From the NCBI GenBank assembly GCA_963666285.1, contig OY762711.1: a stretch of DNA of 64,000 bases; one strand, given 5' to 3'. The position numbers were made by a program, and so were the translations under genes. The DNA is from Sedimentisphaerales bacterium. GTDB taxonomy: Bacteria; Planctomycetota; Phycisphaerae; Sedimentisphaerales; SM23-30. The notes under the pieces were generated by a model. That model worked only from the letters and a program-made list of their open reading frames with translations, had not been told where the DNA came from and made no database searches. Positions 1 through 19,635 of the stretch are shown in pieces; position 1 is the first letter of the stretch; the number at the start of each line of letters is the position of its first letter.

Positions 1-1560
1 AGGTGGGTTGCCAATTATTATGTCATATTTATCTTCGCCAAAATCATGCGGATTGATTTCTTCTCTATTAGAATCTTGGACATGCGTACTATCAAGCAAG
101 CTGTTTCCGAAATGAATATTTGAAGACAAGTCAGGAAGTACAGGGGTCGGCACGCTTGAATCAGTTTCATCTTCGATTAACTTGAGAAGCAAACCAAATT
201 TACATGCCTCTACTGCATTAAAATCTTTATCAACTCCAAAAATGCAGCTTTCGATTAACTTTCTTTTAATTTTATATTGAAGCTTATATGTTGATGTGCT
301 TTTCTGAATCAATTTCCTAGGAGATTCTCTGATATAATAGTCAATCAATATGTCGTTTAATAATTGATATGTCTCTAACAGAAATGCGCCGGAGCCACAT
401 GCTATATCAGAAAAACGGTAACTTAATATTTCCTCGTCTGTCTTTCCTTCACAGTACTCTTGGACTGTTTGCCGCAATATATCCTTGATTATGAAAGTTG
501 GGGTTGTTATGACATCTCTGTCAACATGTTCTGGTTTGTTTTCTAGAACAATTACATTGTCTTTAATTACAAGATGCTGCCCAATAAAAATTTCATAAAT
601 ATTTCCTAATATATCAGAAGCAAATACTGCGAAAGAATAAGTGCTTGCAGGAAAATATAATTGCTCAATAATTGACCAAAACGCAGACTGGTTATTTTCT
701 AAAACAGCATCTGAATACTTATGATCAAATAGGCCAGAATTGTATTTCTTGTCAGCCTCCTTGAACTTTTTAATTAGGGATTCAAAATCCTTTTCTTTAG
801 CACATTGCAGTAAAAATTCATACTCTTCAAGATTCCTGTCTTCGCAAACACGAAGAAAAATAATACTATTAAGGTAGCGATGAACGATATCGTTCAGCTC
901 TATCTCGTCTATATCAGGTCTATGTGAAAATATCTCTTCGCCTAAAATAACACGCCATTGATTAATCTGGTCTAGGAATATCTTGTCAATGCTAAAAAGT
1001 TTCAATTGTTCTTCAATGTCTTTCCAAATTTCATCAAATTGACCACTATAAACACTTTTCTGGCTTAACTGCTTTTTAATCTCATCATATTTTTCAATAT
1101 ATTCAGTGTAGTGGTATAAATTAATACGAGAATGAGAAGCTATGTCGTCAGCACCAACTTGTTTTGAACAGTCATAAATAGCTAGGTGTTCAAAGTTAGA
1201 TAGGACACTAATCTTTAATTTTGCAGTAAACCCATATGCTCGTGTTTGCCTTGCTGGCTCTGGATTTTCATGGATTTTAACATTTGGCTTTTTAGCCTCA
1301 ACAAAAAACTTTCTGGTGTCGAATAACCTAAAAGTATAGTCAGGTTTTTTGGTATTTGACGAAACATTTTCCTTTAAAGGCTCTTCAACCAAAACCTCTC
1401 TTTCATTTGTTATTTTCCCAGATGCATTCTTTATATCCCATCCCAGTAATTCAAAAAAGGGTTCTAAAAAATCAGTTCTAAGCTGAGATTCGTTGTATTT
1501 GCTTGATAGATAATGAGTCCTATTATTTTCGTATTTCTCAATAAGTTTATTTATGCTCAT
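1..1560 (-). CDS. Type IIG (Eco57I-like) restriction-modification enzyme, N-terminal part; runs off window start
   Basis: Manual translation from ATG 1560: MSINKLIEKYENN...NESQLRTDFLEPFFELLGWD...KPDY...FFVEAKK (PD-(D/E)XK nuclease), motif I FSDIACGSGAF, and DIIIGNPP at the window edge (motif IV; gamma-class order). Not in the ORF track. Confidence 0.88.
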   Translation of the reverse strand, partial: MSINKLIEKYENNRTHYLSSKYNESQLRTDFLEPFFELLGWDIKNASGKITNEREVLVEEPLKENVSSNTKKPDYTFRLFDTRKFFVEAKKPNVKIHENPEPARQTRAYGFTAKLKISVLSNFEHLAIYDCSKQVGADDIASHSRINLYHYTEYIEKYDEIKKQLSQKSVYSGQFDEIWKDIEEQLKLFSIDKIFLDQINQWRVILGEEIFSHRPDIDEIELNDIVHRYLNSIIFLRVCEDRNLEEYEFLLQCAKEKDFESLIKKFKEADKKYNSGLFDHKYSDAVLENNQSAFWSIIEQLYFPASTYSFAVFASDILGNIYEIFIGQHLVIKDNVIVLENKPEHVDRDVITTPTFIIKDILRQTVQEYCEGKTDEEILSYRFSDIACGSGAFLLETYQLLNDILIDYYIRESPRKLIQKSTSTYKLQYKIKRKLIESCIFGVDKDFNAVEACKFGLLLKLIEDETDSSVPTPVLPDLSSNIHFGNSLLDSTHVQDSNREEINPHDFGEDKYDIIIGNPP

Positions 1561-1755
1561 AACAGATCTCCATATCTTATTTGTCTTCCTGCAACAAGAA
1601 AAACATTAGTGCCTATGCAATAGTACCCAGCGGTAAATGCTGATAAATCGTAAATCCTTTTAAGTTCTGAAAATAAACCTTTTCGATAATTGGATTGCAT
1701 CGTAAATTATATATCCCATAGCCACATAGACAAAATCATTCTCAGGCATAGGTTT

Positions 1756-1971
1756 TTAAATCTTTTCGTCAGGAAGCTTTCCTTTTTCGCTCAGCCACCG
1801 ATCAATGGTTTCCTTGTGAAACCGCCAATGCCGCCCAACTTTCTGACCTGGTAATTTGTCTTCCTGAGCCAGTTTATAGAGTGTAGACTTAGCGACCTTC
1901 AAGTAAGTTGAAAGTTCGTCAATTGTCATTACACTTGTATTCTCTTCAAACATATTATTCGCCTTGTGCAT
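1756..1971 (-). CDS. Excisionase-like HTH DNA-binding protein (HTH_17 type)
   Basis: MTIDELSTYLKVAKSTLYKLAQEDKLPGQKVGRHWRF; true start probably at a downstream Met. Confidence 0.85.
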   Translation of the reverse strand: MHKANNMFEENTSVMTIDELSTYLKVAKSTLYKLAQEDKLPGQKVGRHWRFHKETIDRWLSEKGKLPDEKI

Positions 1972-2293
1972 AAATTGGCTATTTTAGAGGATAGTACAGC
2001 TTCTAAAGCCTCGGAATGCCATATATTTAACAGTTATTAATGCTTGCTGTCAATTACTAATTACCAGATGTCCGATTTAGAGTACATAAACTTGATTTTT
2101 TAAGCTTAATTTGTTAAAATTTTATTAAAAGGTTCAGAAAAGACGTGAATTCTGAACCTTTTTTCACGTCGATTTTGCAATTTTTTCTAAGAAATCCATA
2201 TTTTCAGCCCCTTATGAGGCCATTTTCCACTTTTTGCCCGTGTCATCCAGAGCAAGAATACATTTACACTGCCTATATCTGGCAAGCCTATTA

Positions 2294-2330
2294 TGCACAT
2301 AAATGCTTATTAGTAAAGCATATAAGTGCA
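2294..2330. promoter_or_regulatory. Imperfect inverted repeat, possible accessory protein-binding site
   Basis: TGCACATAAATGCTTA ... AAAGCATATAAGTGCA, just upstream of the dif-like site. Confidence 0.45.
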
Positions 2331-2347
2331 AATCAATCTCCATCAAA

Positions 2348-2375
2348 GGTTCATATAACACGTCTTAGATGAACT
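2348..2375. other. dif-like tyrosine recombinase core site (11-6-11)
   Basis: GGTTCATATAA-CACGTC-TTAGATGAACT: inverted 11-bp arms with a 6-bp spacer, 34 bp upstream of the tyrosine recombinase. Confidence 0.7.
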
Positions 2376-2409
2376 CAAGTGACAGGAGAAGTATTTTGAT
2401 TAAAAAAGC

Positions 2410-3039
2410 ATGATAACCGGCAATTGGATTCTGGAGCCAAGCAAGTTTCTAAACAGGAGTCAGGCTGGCGATTTACTTGGTACCGCCAAAGAGCAAGCTG
2501 AGATTTCACAGGCCAGAAGCGAAAAAGTCGCTGTTCGGGACTACTTTGTAGTCCATTTTAATATTGGAACTGGCCTGAGAGTTGCGGAACTGGCAGATTT
2601 GAACTGCGGCGATCTGTTTATCAATGGCAAATCGAGTTCTGTATTGGTCAGGAATGGCAAAGGCAGCAAGAAGCGATTGGTCTTTATTAGTGAGTTATTG
2701 GCAAGCCACTGTAAGGAGTATCTTCGGTGGAAAAAGCAGATCGGGGAATCGGTCGAAGATGATTCGCCATTATTTCTGTCAAGCAATACCGGCAGGCACA
2801 TGACTTCCAGAGCTTTGCAGAAAGCTTTTAAGCGATGTGCCAAGAGAGCGAATTTGGACTCAAATTATTCGATTCACTGCCTTAGGCACACATACGCCTG
2901 TTTTTTGCTGAAAGCCAGCGACTGGAATCTCAGGCTTGTTCAGAAGCAGCTTGGCCATGCCCGGATATCCACAACACAAGTATATGCTGACGTAATGATG
3001 CCTGACATCGAAAAGGCACTTAACAAACTGCACTTATAA
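2410..3039 (+). CDS. Short tyrosine recombinase (catalytic domain only)
   Basis: GLRVAEL (R), GKGSK (K), HCLRH (HxxR), LGH, TQVY (Y); 209 aa. Confidence 0.93.
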   Translation: MITGNWILEPSKFLNRSQAGDLLGTAKEQAEISQARSEKVAVRDYFVVHFNIGTGLRVAELADLNCGDLFINGKSSSVLVRNGKGSKKRLVFISELLASHCKEYLRWKKQIGESVEDDSPLFLSSNTGRHMTSRALQKAFKRCAKRANLDSNYSIHCLRHTYACFLLKASDWNLRLVQKQLGHARISTTQVYADVMMPDIEKALNKLHL

Positions 3040-3122
3040 AAGATTATTCACCGTACGGTGGTAACAAGGATAAAATTTATAAGGACAATCGTTTTCCAAT
3101 AATAATAAGAGAGGATATTAAA

Positions 3123-3800
3123 ATGAAACTTCCAGATTTTATTAAAAAGCCATTAACTGGGCTTGCTTTACTAGCTGCGGCAACATCCGCAAATGCTGGG
3201 GTGACTACTGATCTACAAGTAGGAAATTATAACAATCTTGACAATGGTTTTAATTACACCTTAGCAATCACCAATACATATCCTGATATTACATTCGATT
3301 CTGGATTAGTTAAAAGTGATTTTATCAATGGTTTAGCTGATAGTATCGCAAACTACAATCCTAACGTAGATAAGCAGAGTGTTGTTGATGAATTGAATTC
3401 TACTATCGGCTTTTTTCCAACTAGTGACTACAACGGAAGTACCGGCTGGTTCAACTCTATTACTCCAGCGGGAGACATTGAGTTGACTAATAATGGAATA
3501 ATTCCAGGAGTTACTTACAATGAATGGAATCAGGACGGCACCGCTGTTCTTCATGGATTCGTGAATGCAGACCTGCTTGATGTTGATGGTGTTACTGGGT
3601 ACAATCCTGTTACTGATCTGGGCTTAAGAATTGATTCACTAAATCCGTACATCAATGGAGTTATTGGAACAAGTACTAACAACCTACGGTACGGTGGGGA
3701 TTTAGATCGACTTGAAGCTACCCCTGTCCCAGAGCCTTCATCGTTAGCACTTGTTGGAATGGGAGCATTAGCATTATCAGGTTACAGAAAAAGAAAATAA
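3123..3800 (+). CDS. PEP-CTERM sorting domain protein
   Basis: Signal peptide ending ANA; C-terminal VPEPSSLALVGMGALALSGYRKRK. Confidence 0.92.
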   Translation: MKLPDFIKKPLTGLALLAAATSANAGVTTDLQVGNYNNLDNGFNYTLAITNTYPDITFDSGLVKSDFINGLADSIANYNPNVDKQSVVDELNSTIGFFPTSDYNGSTGWFNSITPAGDIELTNNGIIPGVTYNEWNQDGTAVLHGFVNADLLDVDGVTGYNPVTDLGLRIDSLNPYINGVIGTSTNNLRYGGDLDRLEATPVPEPSSLALVGMGALALSGYRKRK

Positions 3801-3820
3801 TATTAATTTTGGAAAGTTTC

Positions 3821-3855
3821 ATAATGAAGATTGGTGTCTTGCCGGTCTTCATTAT
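3821..3855. terminator. Hairpin between convergent genes
   Basis: ATAATGAAGATTGGT-GTCTT-GCCGGTCTTCATTAT. Confidence 0.6.
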
Positions 3856-6800
3856 TAGTTCAAAACATGAGTTTTTGAAATATTGTTTAGAAAGTCACCC
3901 TCATAGTAAAACAAGTCTCCGTAATCAAATAAACCGCTTTTACTGTCATCATAAATTTTAACTATACCGCCTCTTCCTGATATATTTGCGTAAGATCCAA
4001 AAGAGTTTTGAGAAAATATTTTGTATTGAATCTCATCCATACTATCACTCACCGTAAATCTTCCAAGCACACAGCCGCTATCATCACAGCCGTCCTGCAC
4101 AAAAGAATATTTTCCCATATAATAAGAAGTATTCATAACTACTCCATCAAAACTATTGTCAACATCTACTAACCACCAACTATCGCCATAACTGGCATTA
4201 TAATCATTAGTCAGGTCAGTAGTGAATGAGTAACTGAAATTATTGGCGACAGAATTATTAAACCAGTATTGGTTATATCCATCTTTGCCAACAGAAACTA
4301 AATTGCTTAAATCTACATCTGACAGATTAATTGGTTCATTAAAAGTCAGATTCAACTCGAAGGTACTCAACTCGAAGGGACTATTGACTAAGGAGACTTT
4401 CAGATTACTCACGGTGTCAATGTCATGAAGCAAAGTATAATTTCTGAAATCGGTCATATGACTATTGTTTTTTGAATAGTCCCATTCAGGAATATGGGTT
4501 TCAATAAATGTTATATTTTCAACCGCCGAATCAATACTCATCAACACTGTTTCATTAAAATATTCAAAATCAGTATCAAAGCTGAAATTTAATACAACAG
4601 AAGTGCCATCCCACGTCATAAACCAACCCGAGACATTCTTGCTAAGATCAATATTGCTGCTGCCTAATGAATCTGAATAGCTTCCTGATAATTGGATCGG
4701 ATTTCCAGTGGAATTCAAAAATGAGATCGTTGAATAATTATAAACATACCTGTTTGCGAAATCAATTGCTTTGGTATTCGACCCATAGTCATATATAGTT
4801 CCATCAAAAGAATTGACCGTCATTCCTGACAGATTGCAGCCTTCTAACTTCACTTCTGACTCGCTGCTTCCCGTGAAGACAACACCGTTAATAAAACTTA
4901 CATTTTCAAATCGTAATACCCCTAAATCAGTTCCGGATATATTAATGCTGCTTCCATTAAAAATCGAATTTGAGACAGTACCGTTTGACTCACTAAAATT
5001 AACAGATGCATTGAACACAACCTGATTTATATTGACTCGGACATTATCAAATTCAACATTAGCAACAAAATCTTTTCTAACAGATCCTGAATAATCACAT
5101 CCGCTCGCAATAATAGCGATTCCAAGACTGAACGGCAGATCGTAATCTGCACATCTGGTTTCATCGGTTATTGTGTCAGCCAAAATCATAGAATATTGAT
5201 TCGGTGCAAAATCTATAGCAAAAGAATCGTCTGAATTCTGGTTAAAAGTATAGAGGTTAGATTTATCAACCAGATAGTATTTCAGATTCTGAGACGAATC
5301 ATAATAATCATTTCGATAAGTTCGCCCGACCATATTCACCTTAAAGAAGTAATCGTTATAGTTCCATCCATTGACAGTGTTAATGTCTGAAAATGTGAAA
5401 TTAACTATCGGAGAAGTTTTATTGACATTAATTTTTGCCGTATATTCTGTGCTCAGGTTCCTGAAATCTGAAATATTATTGTCTGCAATTTTCAACAACC
5501 GATTGCCGCTGATATAGGAGTAGATTATTTCCGAGTCAGAATCATTATCGAAATCATAGTTTGCTGAAACGTATGCGGGCGACCAATCAAATGTTTTAGT
5601 TGTCAATGAATTTACAAGGTAGATTCCTAATACCCCCGAACCCTTAAAAGCATGGTATATGAGATCATAATTAGCATCTCCCATAACGTCTAATAATTGT
5701 GTTTCGTAAAGAAAGTTTAGGCCAAAATCAAATGATTCTTCCAACTCCAATCCGCTTCCGCTGTAATTATACCAGTAGACTCCATAATCGGTGCTATCCA
5801 CACCGATTTCAATATGTCCATCCGAATCATAATCTCCTGCGAATATTGATTTGACATCAAACCCGTTTGCATTAATATAATAATAGTCCCATTCAGAAAT
5901 GTTCATGGACAAGTTGTTTCGATGAAATAATTTGATTTGATTCGGAGCTGAAACATCATAATAGCATATTACATCTTGTATCGTATCTTTGTCAATGTCG
6001 ATAATCTTCATATCTGTGCATTTATAGTTTCCTCCAGAGACAATCTTAGTATTAACAGGGACAAATGCGTCTCCATCTAAACTATAATAATTATATTGCC
6101 ATTGCCCTCCGTCTGCACTGGTTGCATTCAAAACCAATACATCCTTGTAAAAATCCCCATCAATATCGAACGCGCTAAACGACAAAATATGATCCATGCC
6201 GTCAACTACCTGAGCACCATAATTAAACCTAAAACCATCACCATCAATCGCCCCAAGTAATAAATGGATATCACTCTTGTTGCCAATCAGAATGTCACCG
6301 ATTCCATCCCAATTGAAATCAGTGATGAAAAACTCTGCGTCATTATTCATAACAACACCTGTAGCTGGAAGTGTAACTGAATTCAAAATCTCTCCGGCAC
6401 CTGAGTAATTCGCCCGAACATTAACTCCATCAAAGACAAGAAGGCCATCATCTTCAAGCACAATTAAATCGTCAATACCATCCAAATCTATATCGTAATT
6501 GCCAAGCTTAAATCCATTAGCAGATGAAATCCCAGAAAATGGGTTAGAGTTTGAAACCGAAAACTGCGGTTCATAAGGCTCAACTGAAACATAACCACTG
6601 CCATTGTACCAGCCGCCAGAATATGAGCAGTTGTAGACAAGGTTTATATTGTCCGAATTACTATATGTATGCGTGTAGCTCTGCACATCCGAATAATCAT
6701 TACTGTCAATTGAAATGTCACAGGAATCAAAATCAATTGTGCTTCTATCAGATTCAACATACCATGAAACAATTTCGTATTCATTTTCGATATATTGCAT

Positions 6801-7178
6801 TGGAGAATAATCAAAGTCTAAGTAAAACTTTCCCTGCTGGTTATAAGGCACAGTCCAGTTTAAGAAGTAGTCAGTGCCGTTTGAACAATTGAAATACAAA
6901 TAAGTACCATTTATGAAAGATATGGTAAAATTGTACAAATTGCCCGAACTTCCATTTGCTTGATAAAAAGTTGCATTGTCGTAACTGAACGAACAGTTAT
7001 TCGAATTTTGCAGAATGTTAGAAGAGTAGAGACCGACTGTTAAATTGACATTGTCATTTTTGTACAAGTCCATCCAAAATGGATTTTCAATATTTGTTAC
7101 ATTGCCTTGAATTGTATTTGCAAAACATAAGCTAGAAATAATTACTGCAAATACCAAGCAAAACGTTATGCCCCTCAT
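3855..7178 (-). CDS. Large secreted/surface protein with FG-GAP/VCBS-like repeats, very sequon-rich
   Basis: Signal peptide; repeats such as DLDGIDDLIV, DFNWDGIGDILI, DIDGDFYKDVLV, GDYDSDGHIEI; about 45 N-x-S/T by manual count; no C-terminal anchor. Confidence 0.8.
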   Translation of the reverse strand: MRGITFCLVFAVIISSLCFANTIQGNVTNIENPFWMDLYKNDNVNLTVGLYSSNILQNSNNCSFSYDNATFYQANGSSGNLYNFTISFINGTYLYFNCSNGTDYFLNWTVPYNQQGKFYLDFDYSPMQYIENEYEIVSWYVESDRSTIDFDSCDISIDSNDYSDVQSYTHTYSNSDNINLVYNCSYSGGWYNGSGYVSVEPYEPQFSVSNSNPFSGISSANGFKLGNYDIDLDGIDDLIVLEDDGLLVFDGVNVRANYSGAGEILNSVTLPATGVVMNNDAEFFITDFNWDGIGDILIGNKSDIHLLLGAIDGDGFRFNYGAQVVDGMDHILSFSAFDIDGDFYKDVLVLNATSADGGQWQYNYYSLDGDAFVPVNTKIVSGGNYKCTDMKIIDIDKDTIQDVICYYDVSAPNQIKLFHRNNLSMNISEWDYYYINANGFDVKSIFAGDYDSDGHIEIGVDSTDYGVYWYNYSGSGLELEESFDFGLNFLYETQLLDVMGDANYDLIYHAFKGSGVLGIYLVNSLTTKTFDWSPAYVSANYDFDNDSDSEIIYSYISGNRLLKIADNNISDFRNLSTEYTAKINVNKTSPIVNFTFSDINTVNGWNYNDYFFKVNMVGRTYRNDYYDSSQNLKYYLVDKSNLYTFNQNSDDSFAIDFAPNQYSMILADTITDETRCADYDLPFSLGIAIIASGCDYSGSVRKDFVANVEFDNVRVNINQVVFNASVNFSESNGTVSNSIFNGSSINISGTDLGVLRFENVSFINGVVFTGSSESEVKLEGCNLSGMTVNSFDGTIYDYGSNTKAIDFANRYVYNYSTISFLNSTGNPIQLSGSYSDSLGSSNIDLSKNVSGWFMTWDGTSVVLNFSFDTDFEYFNETVLMSIDSAVENITFIETHIPEWDYSKNNSHMTDFRNYTLLHDIDTVSNLKVSLVNSPFELSTFELNLTFNEPINLSDVDLSNLVSVGKDGYNQYWFNNSVANNFSYSFTTDLTNDYNASYGDSWWLVDVDNSFDGVVMNTSYYMGKYSFVQDGCDDSGCVLGRFTVSDSMDEIQYKIFSQNSFGSYANISGRGGIVKIYDDSKSGLFDYGDLFYYEGDFLNNISKTHVLN

Positions 7179-7200
7179 ATTGTGACTATCTGGTTAAGCT

Positions 7201-7208
7201 TATATAAA
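7201..7208 (-). promoter_or_regulatory. Archaeal-type TATA box of the surface protein gene
   Basis: Minus strand caaaatc-TTTATATA, 22 nt before ATG 7178, no SD. Confidence 0.6.
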
Positions 7209-7295
7209 GATTTTGTTTGAGTATTGGTCTACGTTATTATCGGTATAGCAAAAACTTAATAAAGCAGTTAATTGTTCCAAAAATTGGTTAAAGTC

Positions 7296-7340
7296 GTCAT
7301 TAAGCTTCCTTTCGGGGAAACTTAATGGCATTTTCTTTCT
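7296..7340. terminator. UUCG-loop hairpin followed by a T-rich tract
   Basis: GTCATTAAGCTTCCT-TTCG-GGGAAACTTAATGGC then ATTTTCTTTCT. Confidence 0.5.
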
Positions 7341-7386
7341 GGTGAATAGCCCCAGTTAACTGCGACAAGCCTCCATAAATATCAGA

Positions 7387-7599
7387 TTATTCATCTATGA
7401 CTACCATTGAGCCATCATTAAATAAATCACCCTGATAAGCAATTTCCATACCAGGAATTGCTTTGGGAGATTTGCTGATAAGGGTATCGTTATCGACTGA
7501 GTAAGCAGTTTCATTTATCGCTATTTCAGAATCATCATTTGCCATGATGGTGCATCCTGAAAGAAGTAATAGTATTGTCAATACAAATATTAATTTCAT
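7387..7599 (-). CDS. Small lipoprotein-like hypothetical protein
   Basis: Start re-called at ATG 7599: MKLIFVLTILLLLSGC (lipobox); TTTTAAAT box 21 nt upstream. Confidence 0.65.
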   Translation of the reverse strand: MKLIFVLTILLLLSGCTIMANDDSEIAINETAYSVDNDTLISKSPKAIPGMEIAYQGDLFNDGSMVVIDE

Positions 7600-7639
7600 G
7601 TCAATAACCAAAGTCGCCATATTTAAAAGCATTTTGTTC

Positions 7640-7792
7640 TTAATTTTTCTGTTGGTTATTATTTGTCGGCAAACCGTAAGTGAATACATCTAAACATGCT
7701 TGAATCCTTTCCATTCCTTCTTTTTCTGATATTTCTTTTCTATCGTAAGCATCAAGAATCCGTCTTATCTTTTTGATCATTTTAGTGTCCAT
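7640..7792 (-). CDS. 50-aa hypothetical protein (not in ORF track)
   Basis: MDTKMIKKIRRILDAYDRKEISEKEGMERIQACLDVFTYGLPTNNNQQKN; AGGAG SD; TTTATAA box at 7840-7846. Confidence 0.55.
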   Translation of the reverse strand: MDTKMIKKIRRILDAYDRKEISEKEGMERIQACLDVFTYGLPTNNNQQKN

Positions 7793-7872
7793 TTACACAT
7801 TTTCTCCTTTTTGGCAATCTATTTAGGTATTAAGCTAGCTTATAAAGATGAAGTGTCATTTATTCACGACCT

Positions 7873-7925
7873 CTGCATAATTATGCAGTGATAGTATAAA
7901 AAGGTATCTGTTTAATTATGCAGAT
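7873..7925. promoter_or_regulatory. Two palindromic operators flanking a TATA box
   Basis: Perfect CTGCATAATTATGCAG (7873-7888), TATAAAAA (7895-7902), near-copy CTGTTTAATTATGCAG (7908-7923). Confidence 0.7.
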
Positions 7926-8141
7926 ATGCCAAGGAAAACTTTATCTCAGATATCAGCATCGATTCAGTCATTATTGCAAAGCGAAGGCGAATTATCCGTC
8001 AGGCAGATAGCCCGGCTTACACATACACAGTGGCGAACAGCTGATAAAGCACTGGAACTTTTAAAGTCACTTGGCCTTATTGAGGAACGAAGATCAGATA
8101 ATAACAAAAGAAATGAACGCCTGTTCCGCTTGATTAAATAA
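7926..8141 (+). CDS. Small winged-helix DNA-binding protein
   Basis: LSVRQIARLTHTQWRTADKALELLKSLGLIEE. Confidence 0.8.
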   Translation: MPRKTLSQISASIQSLLQSEGELSVRQIARLTHTQWRTADKALELLKSLGLIEERRSDNNKRNERLFRLIK

Positions 8142-8167
8142 AATCAACATATCATGCTTAATCAGCA

Positions 8168-8518
8168 TTAAACCCGATATAGCTGATCATAGAGGCGAAC
8201 AGGCAGATAATCCCTAACTGCAGTATCAAGGCCTTCAACCATATGCAAAGCCTGGGGTAGCTGCCCCTGAACAAGAGCATCATAAACATCCTCCAAGTCC
8301 GCAACATCACTAAATGTCGTGCCTGCGATGTCATATTGCTTACGTTTGATATATCCTTTACCATCATCGATCAGTCCGTCGATCTGTGTATGAAGCGATG
8401 CGACATCTTCAATATACTGACCAAGCAAATATCCCTGCGGCAGTCTTGATTGCAAGATTGACTGTTGTTTTTCAGTTAGCTCTTCAAGTGAAAGACATTT
8501 ATTACGCTTACTGGCCAC
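8168..8518 (-). CDS. Hypothetical protein, paralogous to the C-terminal half of 15382..15882
   Basis: GAGGTG SD before GTG; shared motif DV..L.DV..A...G....A...EGL.....D..P.RL. Confidence 0.65.
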   Translation of the reverse strand: MASKRNKCLSLEELTEKQQSILQSRLPQGYLLGQYIEDVASLHTQIDGLIDDGKGYIKRKQYDIAGTTFSDVADLEDVYDALVQGQLPQALHMVEGLDTAVRDYLPVRLYDQLYRV

Positions 8519-8939
8519 TGTCTACACCTCGAAAATAATTACCTGCAAGCTGCTCAATTGGCCGCATATACATATCAATACCCGCTGCGTCGGGCCTGTA
8601 ACCTTCCAGTTGATGATATATATCCGCAGCAGCAATCAATTGCTCAACGTAATTATTCGCAGGAACTGCACTTTGAACCTCAACTTCCGGTGTTAAAAGC
8701 TGGATGTCTATAAATTCAGATCGCATTCTCCTGCTGAAAATAGCGTAATAGCCATCTCTCCCCTCTATATCAATCTGCGTATATCTTGGGTGCTGCAATG
8801 TCCCGCGATCCCGCCCAGCCATATATGAAGCAACCACTATATCATTCACCAAATCATTTTTATCATCACCGGCATTGAACCTGTTATGGTATTGTCGAAC
8901 AATCCCTTCGATAGTTTCCCGTTGTATTGGATCAGTCAT
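8508..8939 (-). CDS. Hypothetical protein
   Basis: 143-aa ORF overlapping the next gene, operon-like arrangement. Confidence 0.6.
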   Translation of the reverse strand: MTDPIQRETIEGIVRQYHNRFNAGDDKNDLVNDIVVASYMAGRDRGTLQHPRYTQIDIEGRDGYYAIFSRRMRSEFIDIQLLTPEVEVQSAVPANNYVEQLIAAADIYHQLEGYRPDAAGIDMYMRPIEQLAGNYFRGVDSGQ

Positions 8940-8970
8940 CGTATATCATAAAGCAAACCCAATAATTCAT

Positions 8971-10104
8971 TTAATAATGTTCAACCGATTTGGACTGCAT
9001 GTTCATCGCCTGCATCTGAAACAACTGTTGCTGGAGCAAGAGCATTTGCTGCTGAATAGCTTCTATTGATGAAATATTACCATTATTGTTTACCTGTATA
9101 TTGGTGACATTTTGTGTAGTTTGAACATCGGTTGGTTGCGCCATTGTCTGCTGTTGAAGATTATTTTTTGAATACACATTTTCAACTAAAGCTTTTTTCA
9201 AATCATTGTTATCCAGATGAACATATACATTTTGATGTTTACTTCCTGGGGCATGGCCTGCAAACTTATTATGTTCAATGCCCTTAACTCCAAGTTTGTA
9301 TAATTCTGTTAGCCGACTGTGCCTGAGTAGATAGGTATTGACTTTTCTTTTTATCCCAACTCTTACAGCCAACCTCTGGATTATTCTATTGATATATGCT
9401 GTTGAAATCGGTTTTTTCCGTGGCTGGTTTGCTCGTGCCATTGCCGGAAATATATAGTCATCATATTGAGGGTCAGGATAAGCCCATTGCTCATGCCACA
9501 TTTTTAAATATTTTATAGAATTATATATCGGCAGATCACGATCATGCGTTGTCTTGGTTGAGTAGAGGTGGACTTCTTTGTCATCCCAATTGATGTCACC
9601 CCAACACAAATCTCTGATTTCTTGTGGCCTAGCTGCAGTTTCAGCAAGAATCGCAAATAATGCCTTATCTCGCAGACGTTCGGCCAGGTGAAGCATTTGT
9701 TTTGCTTCTTGTGGCTTAAACAATACTGATTTGTTTATCTTTGTAGGATTCACCAGAGGACCGATAGGGTTTTTCAAGCATTCTATCATATCCAGGTTTC
9801 TGTAAAACCACTTTAAGAAACGCTTAATGGTTCTGCGTATCATTATTTTCGTAGCGTTTTCATGTTGAGAATAATTTACTAACCCCCAAAAGTCGATAGC
9901 ATCGTCTCGAGTTATCTGATCAAGAGGTTTTTCCATTACATCAATGAACTGCAGCATATATCGGCGATAATCTCTTACCTTTGTTGGGCCAGCGGTAGTA
10001 GCACAGAATCTCAGATAATCGTTAAGTATTTTCTTGTCACTGTCAGACAGGTTTTGAGCCAAAGGTTCAGAGTCTCTTCCGTACATTCGGTATTCACTTT
10101 TCAT
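8971..10104 (-). CDS. Tyrosine integrase, archaeal (SNJ2-like) style
   Basis: TAARPQEI (R), STKT (K), YLLRH, AGHAPGSKHQNVYVHL; GAGGTG SD; Gln-rich tail. Confidence 0.85.
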   Translation of the reverse strand: MKSEYRMYGRDSEPLAQNLSDSDKKILNDYLRFCATTAGPTKVRDYRRYMLQFIDVMEKPLDQITRDDAIDFWGLVNYSQHENATKIMIRRTIKRFLKWFYRNLDMIECLKNPIGPLVNPTKINKSVLFKPQEAKQMLHLAERLRDKALFAILAETAARPQEIRDLCWGDINWDDKEVHLYSTKTTHDRDLPIYNSIKYLKMWHEQWAYPDPQYDDYIFPAMARANQPRKKPISTAYINRIIQRLAVRVGIKRKVNTYLLRHSRLTELYKLGVKGIEHNKFAGHAPGSKHQNVYVHLDNNDLKKALVENVYSKNNLQQQTMAQPTDVQTTQNVTNIQVNNNGNISSIEAIQQQMLLLQQQLFQMQAMNMQSKSVEHY

Positions 10105-10322
10105 AGTGCCACCTCTGGACAGTAGTGTTTTTGTGGTTTGTCTCGATTAGGACGGTTTAGAATGCCGTAAATGAGTGTTTCAGAAAAAAGGGGCTGGGGA
10201 GACAAAATGTAAATGCCCAGGCCGGGCTGACTCAATTTGACTCCACAGCCACTTTTACGGTGCAAATGGATTGTTTTTATCATGCTTTTTCTTAACAATT
10301 ACCCATATATAAATTATTCGTT

Positions 10323-10499
10323 TCATTCTACAAATCTGTTATAATACTCTTTTAAATAATACATCAAACATTGTTTACTACAAAACAATGTCTCATCATC
10401 TAATTTCAGGAATCCTCTTGGTCCGATTACTCCTACTTCTAAATTAATCGCATTTTCTCCCAATCTTAAAGATTGTTTGCATTTTTGGCATTGCTTCAT
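10323..10499 (-). CDS. TRASH-like metal-binding miniprotein, copy 2 (not in ORF track)
   Basis: MKQCQKCKQSLRLGENAINLEVGVIGPRGFLKLDDETLFCSKQCLMYYLKEYYNRFVE. Confidence 0.75.
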   Translation of the reverse strand: MKQCQKCKQSLRLGENAINLEVGVIGPRGFLKLDDETLFCSKQCLMYYLKEYYNRFVE

Positions 10500-10576
10500 T
10501 TTTGCATCAATGCTCGAGAGTAATAGATTTTTTATAAATGATCTATCGATTTTGGCGGTAAGATTTCAATGGGCAT

Positions 10577-11077
10577 TTATTTACGATGCCCAAATATACT
10601 TTTATACGTTGGCAAACAGAAGTGTTCTGCTGCTCTTAATCCGTGCAGGTCACGAATCAGTAGATCAAATTCAGAGATTTCTTTAGGAACGTGAAAAGAT
10701 AAAATCAACATTTCTGAACCAAGAAATTTGATAATTGTCTCTGGATTACCTTTTTCTTTTGGGAAGCTGCAATAATGTCCATCTTTACTTTGAAGCACAA
10801 TGTAATCCATGCTTAACTTATAGCCATCAGTAAAGCCATTGTTAACTATACGTAATTTCATAGTCAAACATTTCATCTTACTCATCATATTTTTTATACT
10901 GAAAGGATGACTAAGGCTTACAAGCTTTACTGCCAGATGGTTATCTATTGAAAGTTTATTATTGGCAGGTACTGTTTCATTCTTCTGTATGGTTGTAAGC
11001 ATATTCTGGATAACATGCATCTCAGCGGATACAGTATCTATCCGTCTGGATATTTCATTGACTATTTGGTAATTCAT
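10577..11077 (-). CDS. Hypothetical protein (DUF4352-like beta-sandwich possible)
   Basis: Start re-called at MNYQ (11077), overlapping the upstream miniprotein stop. Confidence 0.55.
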   Translation of the reverse strand: MNYQIVNEISRRIDTVSAEMHVIQNMLTTIQKNETVPANNKLSIDNHLAVKLVSLSHPFSIKNMMSKMKCLTMKLRIVNNGFTDGYKLSMDYIVLQSKDGHYCSFPKEKGNPETIIKFLGSEMLILSFHVPKEISEFDLLIRDLHGLRAAEHFCLPTYKSIFGHRK

Positions 11078-11234
11078 TTTGCACTCGTAAAAATGACCAG
11101 AAACATTGTTTGCTGCAAAATAGCATTTCATCGCCCAGGTTCAGAAAACCATGAGAGCCTATTACTCCGATTTCAAATTTAATGACATTCTGTCCTAATC
11201 GAAGGACACTTTCACATTTATGGCATTGCTTCAT
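11055..11234 (-). CDS. TRASH-like metal-binding miniprotein, copy 1
   Basis: MKQCHKC...EIGVIGSHGF...LFCSKQC. Confidence 0.75.
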   Translation of the reverse strand: MKQCHKCESVLRLGQNVIKFEIGVIGSHGFLNLGDEMLFCSKQCFWSFLRVQNELPNSQ

Positions 11235-11475
11235 AATCAATCATCACTGTAAGCCAAAGATTTGTTTATAAATAAACAACCGGTTTGGAGTGTTTTTGCA
11301 ATTGGGATAATTCTGTTTTAAAAAATGCCACAAAAGCTAAATAACGTCTATATAGCCAATTGAAGGTGTTTGGGAATGAGAAATTCTCACCGATATAGGA
11401 CAACTTCTGTTAGCGATTTTCAATATTTCGCTGGCAAAACTCATTTGTTTTTTTTATTTGCCCTCCAAAAAGGTT

Positions 11476-11508
11476 CAAAGTTGTTATTAAGTAGTGATAA
11501 CAACTTTG
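11476..11508. promoter_or_regulatory. Perfect 12-bp inverted repeat before the wHTH gene
   Basis: CAAAGTTGTTAT-9nt-ATAACAACTTTG, 2 nt upstream of ATG 11511. Confidence 0.6.
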
Positions 11509-11510
11509 TT

Positions 11511-12086
11511 ATGAACTTTGACCGAACCGGCCACTGGCTTTTTAGGAGCAATAGACGACAAAAACTGCTTAGGCAATTATGTCAGCCTATGACAGCAAGT
11601 CAATTAAACACAAAAGTAAAATTGGCACGCAAAGATTGCAGTTTTGTAATTGCTGGCATGAATAGGCAGAACATTATTTATTGCCTGAACCCCGAAGCCA
11701 AGCGAAGCAGACTGTATGGTCTTACCGATTTGGGAAAATACTGGCGAAAACAGTTTTATCCTCAATTAGACGAATATAGTCAGCCTTCTGATATTGACTG
11801 GAATTTATACGGTTCTGTTTGTTTTAGCTATCGGAAGACTATCATTTTGGCATTAGATGAGCCGCGATACCCAGCTGACATCAAACGATACGCCAGATTC
11901 TATAATCCTGACATCAAGATGAGTTCTAATAATGTTCGTAATGTTATACCTGGACTTCTTGACAATGGAATAATTGTCAAAGTTGACACCAGAGGTGCAT
12001 ACCCTATGTATGACTTGACCGACACAGGCAGACAATTTCAAAATTTGCTGCGAAAAGCAGTGTCTAACCTTCAAAATGATAAATAA
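11511..12086 (+). CDS. Tandem winged-helix protein
   Basis: Two wHTH-like halves ending YGLTDLGK and YDLTDTGR; start re-called at MNFD. Confidence 0.65.
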   Translation: MNFDRTGHWLFRSNRRQKLLRQLCQPMTASQLNTKVKLARKDCSFVIAGMNRQNIIYCLNPEAKRSRLYGLTDLGKYWRKQFYPQLDEYSQPSDIDWNLYGSVCFSYRKTIILALDEPRYPADIKRYARFYNPDIKMSSNNVRNVIPGLLDNGIIVKVDTRGAYPMYDLTDTGRQFQNLLRKAVSNLQNDK

Positions 12087-12819
12087 AATCCACCCTATCG
12101 ATGCCCTTGAAGGGCTTAAAAAGCTGAAAACCAATAGTGTTGACTTGATCATAACTGACCCGCCATATAATATTGCATCCGGCAATGCTCTGACAATCCA
12201 GCAAGGCAAACTTAAGAGTACCAAAGATGCCTGGGGGCAATGGGACATACACCATCCTTTCGATTATGATGTGTTCATGTGTCAGGTAATCATCGAATGC
12301 TACAGGGTTCTAAGGCCGGGCGGCTCTTTTTATATGTTCACTGCTCAGGAAGATAACGGTTATTTTATTCGTCAAGCCGTCAAAAAAGGATTCCAGCTTC
12401 GAAGAGTTATGGCGATGGTCAAAAAGAATCCACTGCCAAGTATGAGCAAAAGAAACTGGAGAAGCAGCTTTGAACTTTGCATGTATATGACCAAGCCATC
12501 GTCTGGTAAGAATGCAGGCTACAAGGACGTAACCTTCAATTTTCTTTCACAGCAAGACTGCATTAATGTATTTCAATATGCCAACGGCAGAAAGCACACA
12601 AAACATCCAACCGAAAAGCCTCAGGCGTTTATTGAATTGCTGGTAAACATCAGTTCTAATCCCGGCGATGTCGCACTTGATCCATTTATGGGTGGCGGAA
12701 CAACGGCAGCGGCAGCAAAAAAACTAGGGCGTAAATTCATTGGTTTCGAGTTGAACCCGGAATATATACAGATGGCTGAGAACCGTTTGGAACAGATTGA
12801 TTCGGGGGCGAAACAATGA
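12076..12819 (+). CDS. Beta-class N4-C/N6-A DNA methyltransferase
   Basis: IITDPPY near N-terminus, HPTEKP, LDPFMGGGTT near C-terminus. Confidence 0.93.
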   Translation: MINKIHPIDALEGLKKLKTNSVDLIITDPPYNIASGNALTIQQGKLKSTKDAWGQWDIHHPFDYDVFMCQVIIECYRVLRPGGSFYMFTAQEDNGYFIRQAVKKGFQLRRVMAMVKKNPLPSMSKRNWRSSFELCMYMTKPSSGKNAGYKDVTFNFLSQQDCINVFQYANGRKHTKHPTEKPQAFIELLVNISSNPGDVALDPFMGGGTTAAAAKKLGRKFIGFELNPEYIQMAENRLEQIDSGAKQ

Positions 12820-13277
12820 ATACCTTGAAATATATTCGAGCTGAACCACAGTACAATGTAAATGAAAGTTCTGTCAGCAAGGCAGAAGAATTGCTAAGCA
12901 ATACGCTGGCAGAGTTTGGCACACCTAACCAAGATTACGAACCATCAGATAATATTGTAAGTGGAATCGAAAAGGCAACTGAACTTGTGCTTTGGCAATT
13001 GTCCAGGTTAAACAAAATGCATAAACAGACAATTGAAAGCATTCTTAAGGCAGAATGCAAGGCATCAACCGATCTTGAACGACTTCACCAGTTGGGATCA
13101 CGTTTCATCAATCCCACCGACACAAGAGCTGCACAGCTAAAGGATAGATTGGTTACTTTGGAAGAAAAAAGAAGACAGGCTGAGCTGGCATTCTTCGAAA
13201 GACAGTCAAAATGCCTTGAGAAACTGACAACACTGGTTGGCAGACACAAACTAATGACTCCGCCTCAGCACAGATGA
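12816..13277 (+). CDS. Hypothetical coiled-coil protein
   Basis: ATGA overlaps with both neighbours. Confidence 0.65.
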   Translation: MNTLKYIRAEPQYNVNESSVSKAEELLSNTLAEFGTPNQDYEPSDNIVSGIEKATELVLWQLSRLNKMHKQTIESILKAECKASTDLERLHQLGSRFINPTDTRAAQLKDRLVTLEEKRRQAELAFFERQSKCLEKLTTLVGRHKLMTPPQHR

Positions 13278-15385
13278 ACATAGAAAAACTGGCCAAATGG
13301 CTGGAACCAATCATGCCTGACAAAATCAAGACATGGTTAAAAGTGCGAGACATGAGTGACCCAGCGACAAAACAGTTAATAGAAAAGCAGATCATATCCA
13401 CCGCATACAGTGTTTTTGGTGACCCCAGAAAAGCTATGCTACTTTCATTGCCGCCATCAAAGGTCACGGACAAGCCTTTGAAACTTGGTAGCGTGTATTA
13501 TGAACGCAGGCGAGGGGCATTCGGTCTCAATAATCAACAATTGCTGCAGCACACAGCTATTTTTGGTCGCTCGGGGGCAGGTAAGAGTAATGTTGTTATG
13601 AACCTGTTTAGGCAGTTGATTAACCGTAACGTGCCAGTATTGTTCCTTGACTGGAAACGCAATGGTCGTGAAATAATCCCTCACGTCACGCGAAAAGTAC
13701 AAGTCTATACCGCTGGTCGTTCGGTTAGACCTTTTCCTTTTAATCCTTTTATCCCACCGCCTGGCATTGAGCTTAACGTCTATACTCAACATGTTGTCGA
13801 TGTTTTAGCTGATGCATACACGCTTGGTGATGGTGCAAGAAGTCTGATGCAAAAAGCCATCATCTCTGCAAGTAATAAATATGACAATGCCCCGAATGTG
13901 ATCCAAATAATTCACGAATTGGAACAGGTAAACGAATCAGAAAAGCTAGACCGCAGTCGAAGTCGAGGCTGGAAAACAACCGCAATGCGAGCGTTAGAAG
14001 AACTAAAGTTGGCCCAGCTGACAGGCGGTAATGCTCAATCGCAGCATAAGTTTGCTCGAAATCTTGCTGCCGGAATCAATGTCGTTGAGCTTGACAGCTT
14101 ATCCCAATCAACGCGTAAATTCATTATCCCATTACTATTTTCATGGGTATATCAGGTTAAGCTAGCCGATTCAAAACGTGAGAAATTATCACTTGTATTA
14201 ATCCTTGAAGAGGCTCACAATGTTCTTTATCGTGGTCAAGGTTCTAATGAGACACTGACCGAACAATTACTTCGTCAGTGTCGTGAAATTGGCATTGGCG
14301 TTATACTTGTAGATCAGCAACCCGGTCAATTATCTTCATCGGCTTTGGGAAATGTCCACAGCAGCATTTGCCTTAATTTAAAAGATCCCGCTGATATCAC
14401 AAAAGCAGCAGGCTTGTCTTTGCTCGATGAAACTGAAAAGAACTATTTAAATCAACTTGAGGTCGGCACTGGTATCGTGAAACTGCAGACACTGTGGCAA
14501 CGGCCCTTTATGGTGCGGTTTGACCATCTGGAACTTGCCAAGGGTAAGGTCACAGACGATGTATTGATTCGCCTGATGCGGGGCAATCTGCCGCAGTCTA
14601 CCCTGAGTCAGCGGGTTTGCCCCAATACCCCACGCAGTTCGCGCCGTCGCCTGCTTGATAGCGGCTTTAATGGGGACCAAGACCATGTCATTGGTCTTAT
14701 ACATGACATCTTACACCATCCATACGATGGTGTAAGAGTCCGCTATGAACGCATAGGGCTAAGCGTAGGTAAAGCCAATAAGCTCAAACAGGAATTACTG
14801 ACTTTAGGGTGGCTATCTCAAAAAATGGTTTCTCAGGGTAATACTCGGAGAGTTGTCCTTGAAATAACTGATGCAGGTCGCAGAGTATTTGATTTGCCAA
14901 TCACCCAGAAAAAGCCCGATCCGATCCTTTCTGTAAAGAAAACCACCACTCCAAAACCTGCCAGAAAAGGCTGGATCGATGTAGGCCTGATAATTGACTA
15001 TATCTCTAATGACAAGTCAGCTTCGCATATTCGCCGTGAATCTTTGGAACACTCCTACTGGAAAAATCGCTACGCTCGCCGCTTAATAGAGCTTGGCTAT
15101 GATGTTGAAATGGAAGCAGCAGTTGAAGGTGGTTTTGCCGATGTCGTTGCACACAAGGCCGGACAAACGCTGATTTGTGAGATCGAGACTGGACGCTCGG
15201 ACTTTATCAAAAACCTGCGACATGGCCTTCAATCGACTGACCTTGTTATCATCGTAGCAACCTGCGAAAAAGCCATGCAAAAAATCGAACGCACGTTAGC
15301 TGAAAAAGAATTACTGATACCCAGCAGGGTTGAAATTGTCCTCAAAGATCATTCCCGATTTTTTGGGGGGAGAAAAATAAGATGA
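13274..15385 (+). CDS. HerA/DUF87-like ATPase fused to wHTH and PD-(D/E)XK nuclease-like domain
   Basis: Walker A GRSGAGKS, Walker B LILEEAH, DQQP; C-terminal EHSYWK...ADVVAHK...ICEIETG. Confidence 0.85.
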   Translation: MNIEKLAKWLEPIMPDKIKTWLKVRDMSDPATKQLIEKQIISTAYSVFGDPRKAMLLSLPPSKVTDKPLKLGSVYYERRRGAFGLNNQQLLQHTAIFGRSGAGKSNVVMNLFRQLINRNVPVLFLDWKRNGREIIPHVTRKVQVYTAGRSVRPFPFNPFIPPPGIELNVYTQHVVDVLADAYTLGDGARSLMQKAIISASNKYDNAPNVIQIIHELEQVNESEKLDRSRSRGWKTTAMRALEELKLAQLTGGNAQSQHKFARNLAAGINVVELDSLSQSTRKFIIPLLFSWVYQVKLADSKREKLSLVLILEEAHNVLYRGQGSNETLTEQLLRQCREIGIGVILVDQQPGQLSSSALGNVHSSICLNLKDPADITKAAGLSLLDETEKNYLNQLEVGTGIVKLQTLWQRPFMVRFDHLELAKGKVTDDVLIRLMRGNLPQSTLSQRVCPNTPRSSRRRLLDSGFNGDQDHVIGLIHDILHHPYDGVRVRYERIGLSVGKANKLKQELLTLGWLSQKMVSQGNTRRVVLEITDAGRRVFDLPITQKKPDPILSVKKTTTPKPARKGWIDVGLIIDYISNDKSASHIRRESLEHSYWKNRYARRLIELGYDVEMEAAVEGGFADVVAHKAGQTLICEIETGRSDFIKNLRHGLQSTDLVIIVATCEKAMQKIERTLAEKELLIPSRVEIVLKDHSRFFGGRKIR

Positions 15386-15882: not shown

Positions 15883-15963
15883 TTTTGGATCAATACTGGA
15901 ATGTTATTTTTCTTAATTTATTGTAAGAAAGAAAATTCGGTTTGGTATCTATACCTCTTACAG

Positions 15964-19488: not shown

Positions 19489-19635
19489 AAATATGGCTAA
19501 AATTAATGTAGCCCTGCATTAGTTGTCCGTAAGAAAGAGACTGATTATATCTGATAACACAGGCTGTGACAAGATTTTATATGCTTGCTGGCGAAATCAA
19601 AAGGGATTTCTACGTTGATCAGCAAGAATGTATGT

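Follow-up and report, generated by a model that had tools for sequence, protein, structure and literature searches.

An integrative element of anaerobic Planctomycetota with a bacterial core and a cargo slot of probable DPANN-archaeal ancestry

Integrative elements that combine a tyrosine recombinase with a HerA/FtsK-type ATPase are known as integrative mobilisable elements in bacteria and as integrated plasmids in archaea. Here we describe an element of this general type in the genome of a Sedimentisphaerales bacterium (GenBank assembly GCA_963666285.1, contig OY762711.1), analyzed within a stretch of 64,000 nucleotides (the window) that corresponds to C1:2944001-3008000 of the host genome (G000; 6.35 Mb, 41% G+C). 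The element shares with the described systems an integrase, a DUF87/HerA-like ATPase, a methyltransferase, and a position in an island near a tRNA gene, but differs from them in its two recombinases and its fixed cargo slot. Among the Pfam and PHROG matches at positions 2410-20715 there is no relaxase, coupling protein, type IV secretion, replication, or capsid family, the HerA/FtsK-like ATPase alone being present, and no att sites or flanking direct repeats were found at the element ends. Transfer between domains carried by an integrative element is a known kind of event, of which the case proposed here is a variant running from DPANN archaea to a planctomycete.

A second comparison concerns promoters. 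In the GeneMarkS-2 report (PMC6028130), the box of leaderless archaeal genes lies at 22-24 or ~26 nucleotides (nt) and that of leaderless bacterial genes at 6-8 or ~10 nt. The cargo genes of the element share with the TBP/TFB-dependent leaderless promoters of archaea (the 'group D' genomes of that report) an A/T-rich TATA box and the lack of a Shine-Dalgarno sequence (SD), with gaps of 21-23 nt. The four boxes of the locus, one of them in the core, are octamers of the TTTAWATA type (TTTATATA twice, TATAAAAA, and TTTTAAAT). The cargo genes differ in that their DNA resides in a bacterium devoid of TBP and TFB, where that mechanism is impossible. Neither PF00352 (TBP) nor PF00382 (TFIIB) had a match in the host genome, which is 97% complete, while the controls matched in four archaea; since both factors are absent, the boxes cannot act as archaeal promoters in the present host.

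Exchange of genes between DPANN archaea and bacteria has to date been described one way, from bacteria into DPANN genomes. Bacterial genes in DPANN genomes are the subject of the relevant passages of Castelle et al. (2021; PMC8204110), the conclusion of which raises the question of whether some DPANN archaea have bacterial hosts. Our case resembles the one treated in those passages in that genes are common to DPANN archaea and bacteria, but here the genes would have moved the opposite way, to a mobile element of a bacterium, together with promoters and a housekeeping synthetase. A full-text literature search turned up no account of planctomycete elements carrying DPANN genes. A bacterial element with DPANN genes, promoters, proteins shaped by N-glycosylation, and an aminoacyl-tRNA synthetase would provide both a concrete lineage to examine and a transfer vehicle, and hints at direct gene traffic between DPANN archaea and planctomycetes.

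We consider it probable that the locus belongs to an integrative element family of anaerobic Planctomycetota that has a bacterial core and whose cargo slot, positions 3855-8141 of the window, holds a module of DPANN-archaeal ancestry. The core would consist of the integrase, two small proteins, zinc-ribbon proteins, a DNA methyltransferase, and the HerA/FtsK-like ATPase, with a short recombinase and a PEP-CTERM protein at the far end, and the cargo module would comprise a self-regulated winged-helix (wHTH) repressor, a small lipoprotein, and a large secreted FG-GAP surface protein. A first-pass annotation, made from the nucleotide sequence, had treated positions 3050-10320 as one archaeal DPANN-type segment, recently acquired. 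An archaeal origin is supported for the cargo genes by their promoter layout, the wHTH gene, the glycosylation sequons, and a glycyl-tRNA synthetase (GlyRS) in a second copy of the element, but fails for the core parts at 8168-10320 and 3123-3800, the closest relatives of which are bacterial.

Synteny with three other loci sets the element boundaries at ~2410-15882, with 19488 as a possible far bound. In G031, a single-contig genome from the same order as the host, the window genes from 2410 to 19488 are collinear at 27-76% identity. At the PEP-CTERM end the identities are 60% for the short recombinase, 30% for the PEP-CTERM protein, 27% for the surface protein, and 29% for the small lipoprotein; in the middle they are 36-38% for a 116-amino-acid (aa) protein present twice, 39% for a 143-aa protein, 65% for the integrase, and 54% for a zinc-ribbon protein; and in the operon that follows they are 53% for a wHTH-like protein, 76% for the methyltransferase, 41% for a 153-aa protein, 68% for the HerA-like ATPase, 47% for a 166-aa protein, and 47% for a NACHT protein. 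A contig of a Kuenenia metagenome-assembled genome (MAG) shares 8168-15882 in the same gene order, and the host genome itself carries a second copy, the sister element, at C1:3379257-3408586, with 58-79% identity in the core and 59% for the wHTH gene. By these alignments, the integrative element is ~13.5 kb long at the least (2410-15882), and positions 3050-10320 are its mid-portion, with bounds that cut through it. The slot between the wHTH and PEP-CTERM genes varies among the elements; in G031 it additionally contains IS110 and IS21 copies and a MarR gene.

The promoter layout that first drew attention to the locus was confirmed at every coordinate. TTATATAA at 7201-7208 (in the sense of the gene TTTATATA, with a one-base offset) lies 22 nt before the minus-strand ATG of the surface protein gene at 7178. 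Also before minus-strand genes and read on that strand, TTTTAAAT at 7621-7628 lies 21 nt before the ATG of the lipoprotein gene at 7599, and TTTATATA at 10306-10313 lies 22 nt before the ATG of a small open reading frame (ORF) at 10283; on the plus strand, TATAAAAA at 7895-7902 lies 23 nt before the ATG of the wHTH gene at 7926. None of these four box-to-ATG spacers contains an SD-like word. The further TTTATAA words at 3076-3082 and, on the minus strand, at 7840-7846 were also present as described, as were the GAGGTG SDs of the gene at 8518 and of the integrase (10104). The orthologous surface protein gene of G031 retains TTTATATA followed by 22 nt in spite of a diverged spacer.

The frequency of such boxes was compared with 4038 host genes outside both elements. 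A loose box, defined as an A/T-only octamer with a gap of 21-23 nt, precedes 10.6% of the host genes and 3/9 called genes in 3050-10320 (P=0.06), a count that misses the 7621-7628 box because the gene caller starts the lipoprotein at 7689 instead of 7599. A strict box (TTTATAWA with at most one mismatch) precedes 1.88% of the host genes, compared to 2/9 genes in 3050-10320 (P=0.012), 4/19 in the element (P=3.9e-4), and 7/30 in the sister element (P=1.2e-6). Whether equally spaced boxes are as common before host genes, which the first-pass annotation had named among the findings that would refute it, depends on the definition: the loose box leaves the difference marginal and the strict box bears it out. 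The box pattern of the window alone is modestly beyond chance and becomes convincing through the sister element, the conserved box in G031, and the wHTH promoter on DPANN-binned contigs described below. A 12-mer weight matrix derived from 28 DPANN boxes was over-fitted to the flanks and too strict (1/19 genes in the element and 3/30 in the sister element), and the simple motif with at most one mismatch was used for that reason. A scan of 2900-11400 with the sigma-70 consensus gave 40 sites versus 35.8 +/- 5.7 in shuffled sequences and was uninformative.

The same layout dominates in DPANN loci. Among 129 genes from loci of DPANN-labelled MAGs, the TTTATAWA box (at most one mismatch) peaks at a gap of 21 nt, with 28 genes against 0-3 at other gaps, and the peak is seen in individual genomes (19/101, 6/23, and 4/26 genes). 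In 13 further loci from the same archaeal phylum as our reference archaeon G042, hereafter the DPANN phylum, the box is spread over 21-23 nt; these include one locus (L050) from an unpublished genome (G286), on which nothing rests by itself. Host genes show a flat distribution of ~0.6% per position.

The 71-aa wHTH regulator (7926-8141, plus strand) gives weak Pfam matches to wHTH families including HVO_A0114, MarR_2, and DUF2250, and has a DPANN affinity: homologs were detected in 10/201 genomes of the DPANN phylum (best 54% and 48% over the full length) and in 0/200 genomes of other Planctomycetota. Its promoter can be aligned without gaps with those of the sister element and two DPANN-binned contigs. 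The TATA box, a TATCTG word, and the 23 nt to the ATG are conserved in this alignment, and palindromic words occur at matching places. On the DPANN contigs the neighbors of the gene are ArdA, RadC, and type III restriction-modification genes. A perfect 16-bp palindrome, CTGCATAATTATGCAG, is located directly upstream of the wHTH TATA box at 7873-7888, and its half-site TAATTATGCAG is repeated at 7914-7924, adjoining the ATG. The palindrome is probably the operator of the wHTH protein.

The largest cargo gene (3855-7178, minus strand) encodes a secreted, sequon-rich surface protein of 1107 aa with FG-GAP_3 matches. Its saturation with sequons, already pointed out in the first-pass annotation, holds up statistically: the protein has 46 N-x(not P)-S/T words versus 19.8 +/- 3.9 expected from 2000 shuffles (z=6.7). 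The excess is directional, with 46 sequons against 20 reversed words (S/T-x-N), compared to a ratio of 1.05 over all host ORFs of at least 300 aa. Four full-length homologs have z values of 6.5-11.2, a 612-aa DPANN-binned fragment has 2.3, and an unrelated 2759-aa giant protein in the sister element reaches 9.2. The oligosaccharyltransferase STT3 is absent from the host genome and from G031 (97 and 99% complete, respectively) and present in 4/4 DPANN genomes tested. The G031 orthologue has nearly the same excess (z=6.5), yet only 8/46 sequon columns are in common. Selection for glycosylation produces just this pattern, a turnover of sequons at a steady density, which suggests that much of the divergence between the two orthologues took place inside archaea. 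Only three homologs were recovered among 7997 scored candidates. The protein atlas gave no usable match, the surface-protein alignment had a single weak 22% match in metagenomes, and a structure model from a six-row alignment (mean pLDDT 43.6, pTM 0.34) was too poor for a fold search.

The phylogenetic signal is strongest in the sister element, the cargo of which (26-33% G+C) contains aldehyde dehydrogenase fragments, the 2759-aa FG-GAP giant protein, a stand-alone PPDK-N-type gene, HAD, radical SAM, PEP-utiliser, and NUDIX genes, and an intact dimeric GlyRS. Among the best 120 matches of this GlyRS, 19 are organism-named and 18 of these are archaeal, 17 with DPANN-type names (Woesearchaeota, Pacearchaeota, Nanobdellota/Nanoarchaeota, and 'DPANN group') and one labelled 'archaeon'; the lone exception is a Bacteroidota MAG. 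Within the same 120 matches the best named ones reach 63-64% identity and the best unnamed one 74%. The GlyRS is 48% identical to that of archaeon G042, whereas the host's own GlyRS aligns only in pieces of 35-45%. In a quick tree it is nested in a 38-row clade (SH-aLRT 100) that includes rows named as Woesearchaeota, Pacearchaeota, and Nanobdellota, far from the host's and G031's own enzymes. The PPDK-N-type gene is commoner in the DPANN sample (129/151 genomes versus 35/150), where it is a stand-alone ORF of ~315 aa, and its best match is 39% in both groups (204 versus 175 bits); its frequency is suggestive only as a DPANN sign, the best matches being non-discriminating. In the same GlyRS tree, the enzymes of two Pacearchaeota-labelled MAGs (loci L033 and L034, genomes G043 and G041) group with the planctomycete hosts' own GlyRS and not with the main DPANN clade, so that on tree placement two GlyRS types seem to be in circulation among Pacearchaeota-labelled archaea. 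The aldehyde dehydrogenase fragments look like a decaying gene, and the PPDK-type genes of the sister element are split.

According to the explanation that we favor, the cargo would have come from DPANN archaea, though not recently, into an element that integrates via its tyrosine integrase. The cargo genes would still have the layout of an archaeal core promoter, with a TATA box 21-23 nt upstream of the ATG and no SD, and the sequence of the surface protein would have been shaped by archaeal N-glycosylation. The host would be unable to read the boxes as archaea do; in the case of expression, its bacterial RNA polymerase would most likely take the TATA box as a -10-like element and start ~7 nt downstream. 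The resulting leader of ~15 nt without an SD would be tolerable because only ~44% of host genes show an SD-like word. The wHTH protein would bind the palindrome and the half-site that bracket its own TATA box, and the surface protein would no longer be glycosylated in the host. The locus would thus be a natural experiment, with archaeal promoters and glycoprotein genes placed in a bacterium that lacks TBP, TFB, and AglB. A parallel is offered by the late promoters of phage T4, in which TATAAATA is read as an extended -10 element without a -35 element. In the proposed use, the RNA polymerase of the host would likewise recognize a TATA-like octamer on its own; the case differs in the box-to-ATG spacing, which is not a T4 feature, and no gp55-like sigma factor was found, though no search was aimed at one.

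Composition and synteny bear on the age of the transfer. The tetranucleotide profile of 3000-10000 is host-like (r of 0.80-0.88 with the host versus 0.63-0.79 with DPANN loci), and the slot in G031 holds an orthologue of the surface protein with only 27% identity; because of these two facts the transfer is not regarded as recent. The cargo of the sister element has an intermediate composition, with the GlyRS region ranking within the top 14 of ~3076 two-kb windows of the genome in likeness to DPANN. The most DPANN-like tetranucleotide signal in the genome was observed elsewhere, at C1:2148001-2178000 (difference up to +0.19 versus a mean of -0.175), where none of the strict TATA-ATG instances is found.

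A tentative extension of this explanation, which we rate as possible but not likely, is that the element family serves as a standing conduit between DPANN archaea and anaerobic Planctomycetota, with the slot filled repeatedly with DPANN DNA. The fillings would then include a repressor with its own promoter, giant surface proteins of glycoprotein type, a complete GlyRS, and the form of the PPDK-N-type gene common in DPANN archaea. Because the surface protein orthologues kept the sequon excess, swapped nearly all sequon positions, and reside in hosts without oligosaccharyltransferase, they would have diverged in archaea and been acquired separately. If so, repeated capture would imply physical contact: DPANN archaea may have bacterial partners or hosts among the Sedimentisphaerales-type planctomycetes, or the element or a relative of it may replicate in both domains. 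Whether any DPANN archaea live on bacteria is the question raised in the conclusion of Castelle et al. (PMC8204110).

Several observations weigh against a DPANN ancestry of the cargo. The strict box is only modestly enriched inside 3050-10320, and the layout of a TATA box plus 22 nt also precedes core genes that have bacterial relatives, namely those at 10283, 11376, and 20091 and the small ORF before the Kuenenia integrase; since the layout recurs there, the boxes may be read in bacteria, and the layout could be an element-specific promoter working in bacteria and not a mark of archaeal cargo. The lipobox of the small lipoprotein and the adjoining PEP-CTERM gene are bacterial-type features, and the composition is host-like as described above. 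The closest homolog of the surface protein (53%) is located on a 5.9-Mb contig, a bacterial-genome scale, whereas the sole match in the DPANN phylum (29% over 460 aa, in 1/301 genomes) is on a 2.8-kb contig whose binning is uncheckable. The strongest phylogenetic evidence, that of the GlyRS, comes from the sister element and not from the window, and the junctions there are known from the assembly alone. Furthermore, the label 'DPANN' derives from MAG titles and source names, and the sample of the phylum of G042 (genomes of 0.5-2.1 Mb) was taken as DPANN by inference.

One alternative is a purely bacterial element, in which the boxes are its own -10-type promoters, the cargo encodes fast-evolving planctomycete surface proteins, and the DPANN matches reflect mis-binning or bacteria-to-DPANN transfer, a common event. 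In its favor are the use of the layout by core genes with bacterial relatives, the host-like composition, and the best surface protein homologs, which belong to genomes of bacterial size. The DPANN contigs bearing homologs are short (2.8, 5.3, and 10 kb), and many bacterial genes are known in DPANN genomes according to the passages of Castelle et al. cited above (PMC8204110). We nevertheless judge this explanation to be unlikely. The sister GlyRS is nested in a large DPANN clade with members on contigs of up to ~1 Mb, the promoter layout is dominant in DPANN loci but flat in the host, and versions of the core in high-GC planctomycetes lack the TATA boxes. A directional sequon excess persists in two bacterial genomes that have no enzyme to read it, and the wHTH gene is found in the DPANN phylum but in none of the other Planctomycetota sampled.

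The integrase had been described as archaeal in style in the first-pass annotation. Encoded at 8971-10104 on the minus strand behind a GAGGTG SD, this 377-aa tyrosine integrase (PF00589, 79 bits, cut-off 27.1) has the catalytic residues R159, K184, R261, H284, and Y294, which are invariant across 24 sequences. Among 2250 candidates, 47 relatives were found at E<=1e-3, and the named ones are planctomycetes, Limihaloglobus sulfuriphilus (65%; Planctomycetota, Phycisphaerae, Sedimentisphaerales) and Bythopirellula (51%). A scan with one genome per species yielded 19 loci. Twelve are bacterial-titled, including Kuenenia (58%), Opitutaceae (56%), Bythopirellula (51%), Pirellulaceae (50%), and Cyclobacteriaceae (49%), and seven are archaeal-titled: Pacearchaeota (42 and 33%), unnamed archaea (42, 28, and 26%), Micrarchaeota (29%), and Nitrososphaerales (26%). 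A quick IQ-TREE analysis placed the protein in a clade of 25 rows (SH-aLRT 98), the named rows of which are bacterial in 7/7 cases. The sister group (support 94) is a five-row clade (support 99) with two Pacearchaeota MAGs and archaeon G042. As placed in this tree, in a clade with only bacterial named rows, the integrase itself is not archaeal, and the integrase family spans both domains. An alignment search against viral contigs gave a single weak 23% match. At one locus of a DPANN-phylum genome (L045; G146:C19), a HerA-like ATPase (28% over the full length) adjoins an integrase 29% identical to that of the window, an analogous pair in an archaeon.

These results bear on the original proposal that the 7.3-kb block in its entirety, with the integrase, is a single recent DPANN-like transfer that retains its original promoters and is probably silent. 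The boxes and their spacings are real, the best NCBIfam model for the integrase is archaeal XerA (NF040815; 96 bits versus 51 for XerD), and relatives of the integrase with 42% identity occur in Pacearchaeota-labelled MAGs. The XerA score is, however, far short of the 220-bit equivalog cut-off. Bacterial genomes have collinear copies of the integrase, the PEP-CTERM gene, and the genes at 8168-8939 at 36-65% identity, the cargo has an orthologous copy in G031 at 27-29%, and the composition is that of the host. A single recent transfer is thus already contradicted with respect to both boundaries and recency, and we regard it as very improbable. An assembly chimera, in which DPANN contigs of a mixed sample were misjoined to a planctomycete chromosome, is hardly credible even though contig depths differ within the sequencing runs in which the window was found, as would be seen in a mixed sample, given that the core-cargo-end architecture occurs twice in the host genome and again in single-contig G031 and that an independent Logan contig of 41,692 bases spans window positions 1-20000 with 0 differences and at an even depth (23.2 and 38 in two runs from a single sample, which may be the source sample). 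Because of this contig, the element junctions are not an assembly artefact, and the chimeric assembly that the first-pass annotation had allowed for is not borne out.

The remaining genes complete the picture of the core, which, as far as the integrase, its two neighbors, and the PEP-CTERM gene are concerned, is bacterial of PVC type by its closest homologs. At one end of the element, a 209-aa short tyrosine recombinase (2410-3039, plus strand; PF00589, 104 bits) has copies at the same end in G031 (60%) and the sister element (59%). The adjacent gene (3123-3800, plus strand) belongs to the conserved end module and encodes a PEP-CTERM protein with a bacterial exosortase-type sorting signal (PF07589, 27.2 bits, cut-off 20.7; TIGR02595, 22.5 bits, cut-off 16); the gene is equipped with an SD, its leader downstream of TTTATAAG is 39 nt long, and it is found at the equivalent position in G031 and the sister element. 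Two small ORFs accompany the surface protein in the slot. The 70-aa lipoprotein (7387-7599, minus strand) has the lipobox LLSGC and a 29% homolog in the same slot of G031, and a 50-aa ORF (7640-7792, minus strand) has the SD AAGGAG and an upstream TTTATAAG at 7840-7847 (plus-strand coordinates). In PADLOC and PHROGs, the surface protein and the lipoprotein had no match, and the 71-aa regulator had only weak wHTH-type ones.

Beyond the slot, the two overlapping core genes of 116 and 143 aa (8168-8939, minus strand) are conserved without an assigned function: their products are 52 and 42% identical to those of the Kuenenia MAG and 36-39% to those of G031, and match no Pfam, PADLOC, or PHROG family. 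In the sister element the two genes are fused into single proteins of 257 and 260 aa, present as two tandem copies (C1:3385858-3387462). The small ORF upstream of the integrase (10101-10313, minus strand; 60 aa from the ATG at 10283) overlaps the integrase start (ATGA). Its counterparts at the same place in G031 and Kuenenia are unlike it in sequence, and the Kuenenia ORF is preceded by TTTATAAG plus 22 nt; it is probably a leader ORF with a promoter and not a conserved excisionase. Next to it, two paralogous zinc-ribbon genes of the CxxC...CSxxC type (10323-10499 and 11055-11240) enclose a 184-aa gene (10323-11240 in all, minus strand), and their homologs are found at the Kuenenia, Opitutaceae, Pirellulaceae, and Cyclobacteriaceae loci. 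The paralogues are 735 bp apart, each behind a AAATCGGTTGAA-like word abutting TTTATAAA. Such words also precede the integrase, 143-aa, and zinc-ribbon genes in G031 and Kuenenia, and probably represent a shared operator or promoter element of the core. At up to 3 mismatches AAATCGGTTGAA is not enriched (77 matches versus 90.7 expected), and the meaningful copies are the exact or near-exact ones before core genes.

The core operon (11370-15882, plus strand) encodes, by Pfam and PADLOC matches, a wHTH-like protein, an N6/N4 DNA methyltransferase, a 153-aa protein, a HerA/FtsK-like ATPase of 703 aa, and a 166-aa protein. The order is the same in G031 (41-76%), Kuenenia (40-66%), and, for the first four genes, the sister element (58-79%), in which no homolog of the 166-aa protein was found. 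An alternative start of the operon at 11376 is preceded by TCTATATA plus 21 nt. The methyltransferase and the ATPase match the mad8, DndH, and HerA models of PADLOC and so resemble defence or DNA-handling modules. The ATPase does not discriminate between the two groups in which it has homologs, with 31-42% identity in 6/250 genomes of other Planctomycetota (E<=1e-60) and no more than 32% among the DPANN-phylum genomes sampled.

The host setting is bacterial. The window carries the markers IF3, ThrRS, DUF1559, PEP-CTERM, and type II secretion pseudopilins, and the element is embedded in a patchwork island that runs from position 1 to ~31,800 and terminates at a tRNA-Asn gene (31774-31847). The island contains restriction-modification genes, a NACHT-HEAT protein, HerA-like ATPases, a PP2C/kinase/FHA/VWA set, and a serine recombinase. 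A DUF2924 protein and the large serine recombinase (27540-29574), located ~2.2 kb from the tRNA-Asn gene, may have served to integrate the larger island around the element. A 32-base word at 2022-2053 has a 94% match at C1:3414127-3414158 beside the sister island; it occurs once per element and is shared with the sister island only. Other contigs of the sequencing runs match just there, with loose ends on both sides, and the word may be a recombination site or a small repeat. The PP2C phosphatase, Ser/Thr kinase-FHA, and VWA genes occur beside both elements (23631-26703 in the window and C1:3433198-3436178; 47-51% identity), and Janus/Ocnus-family genes are likewise paired at 58% identity (29978-30418 and C1:3387532-3387930).

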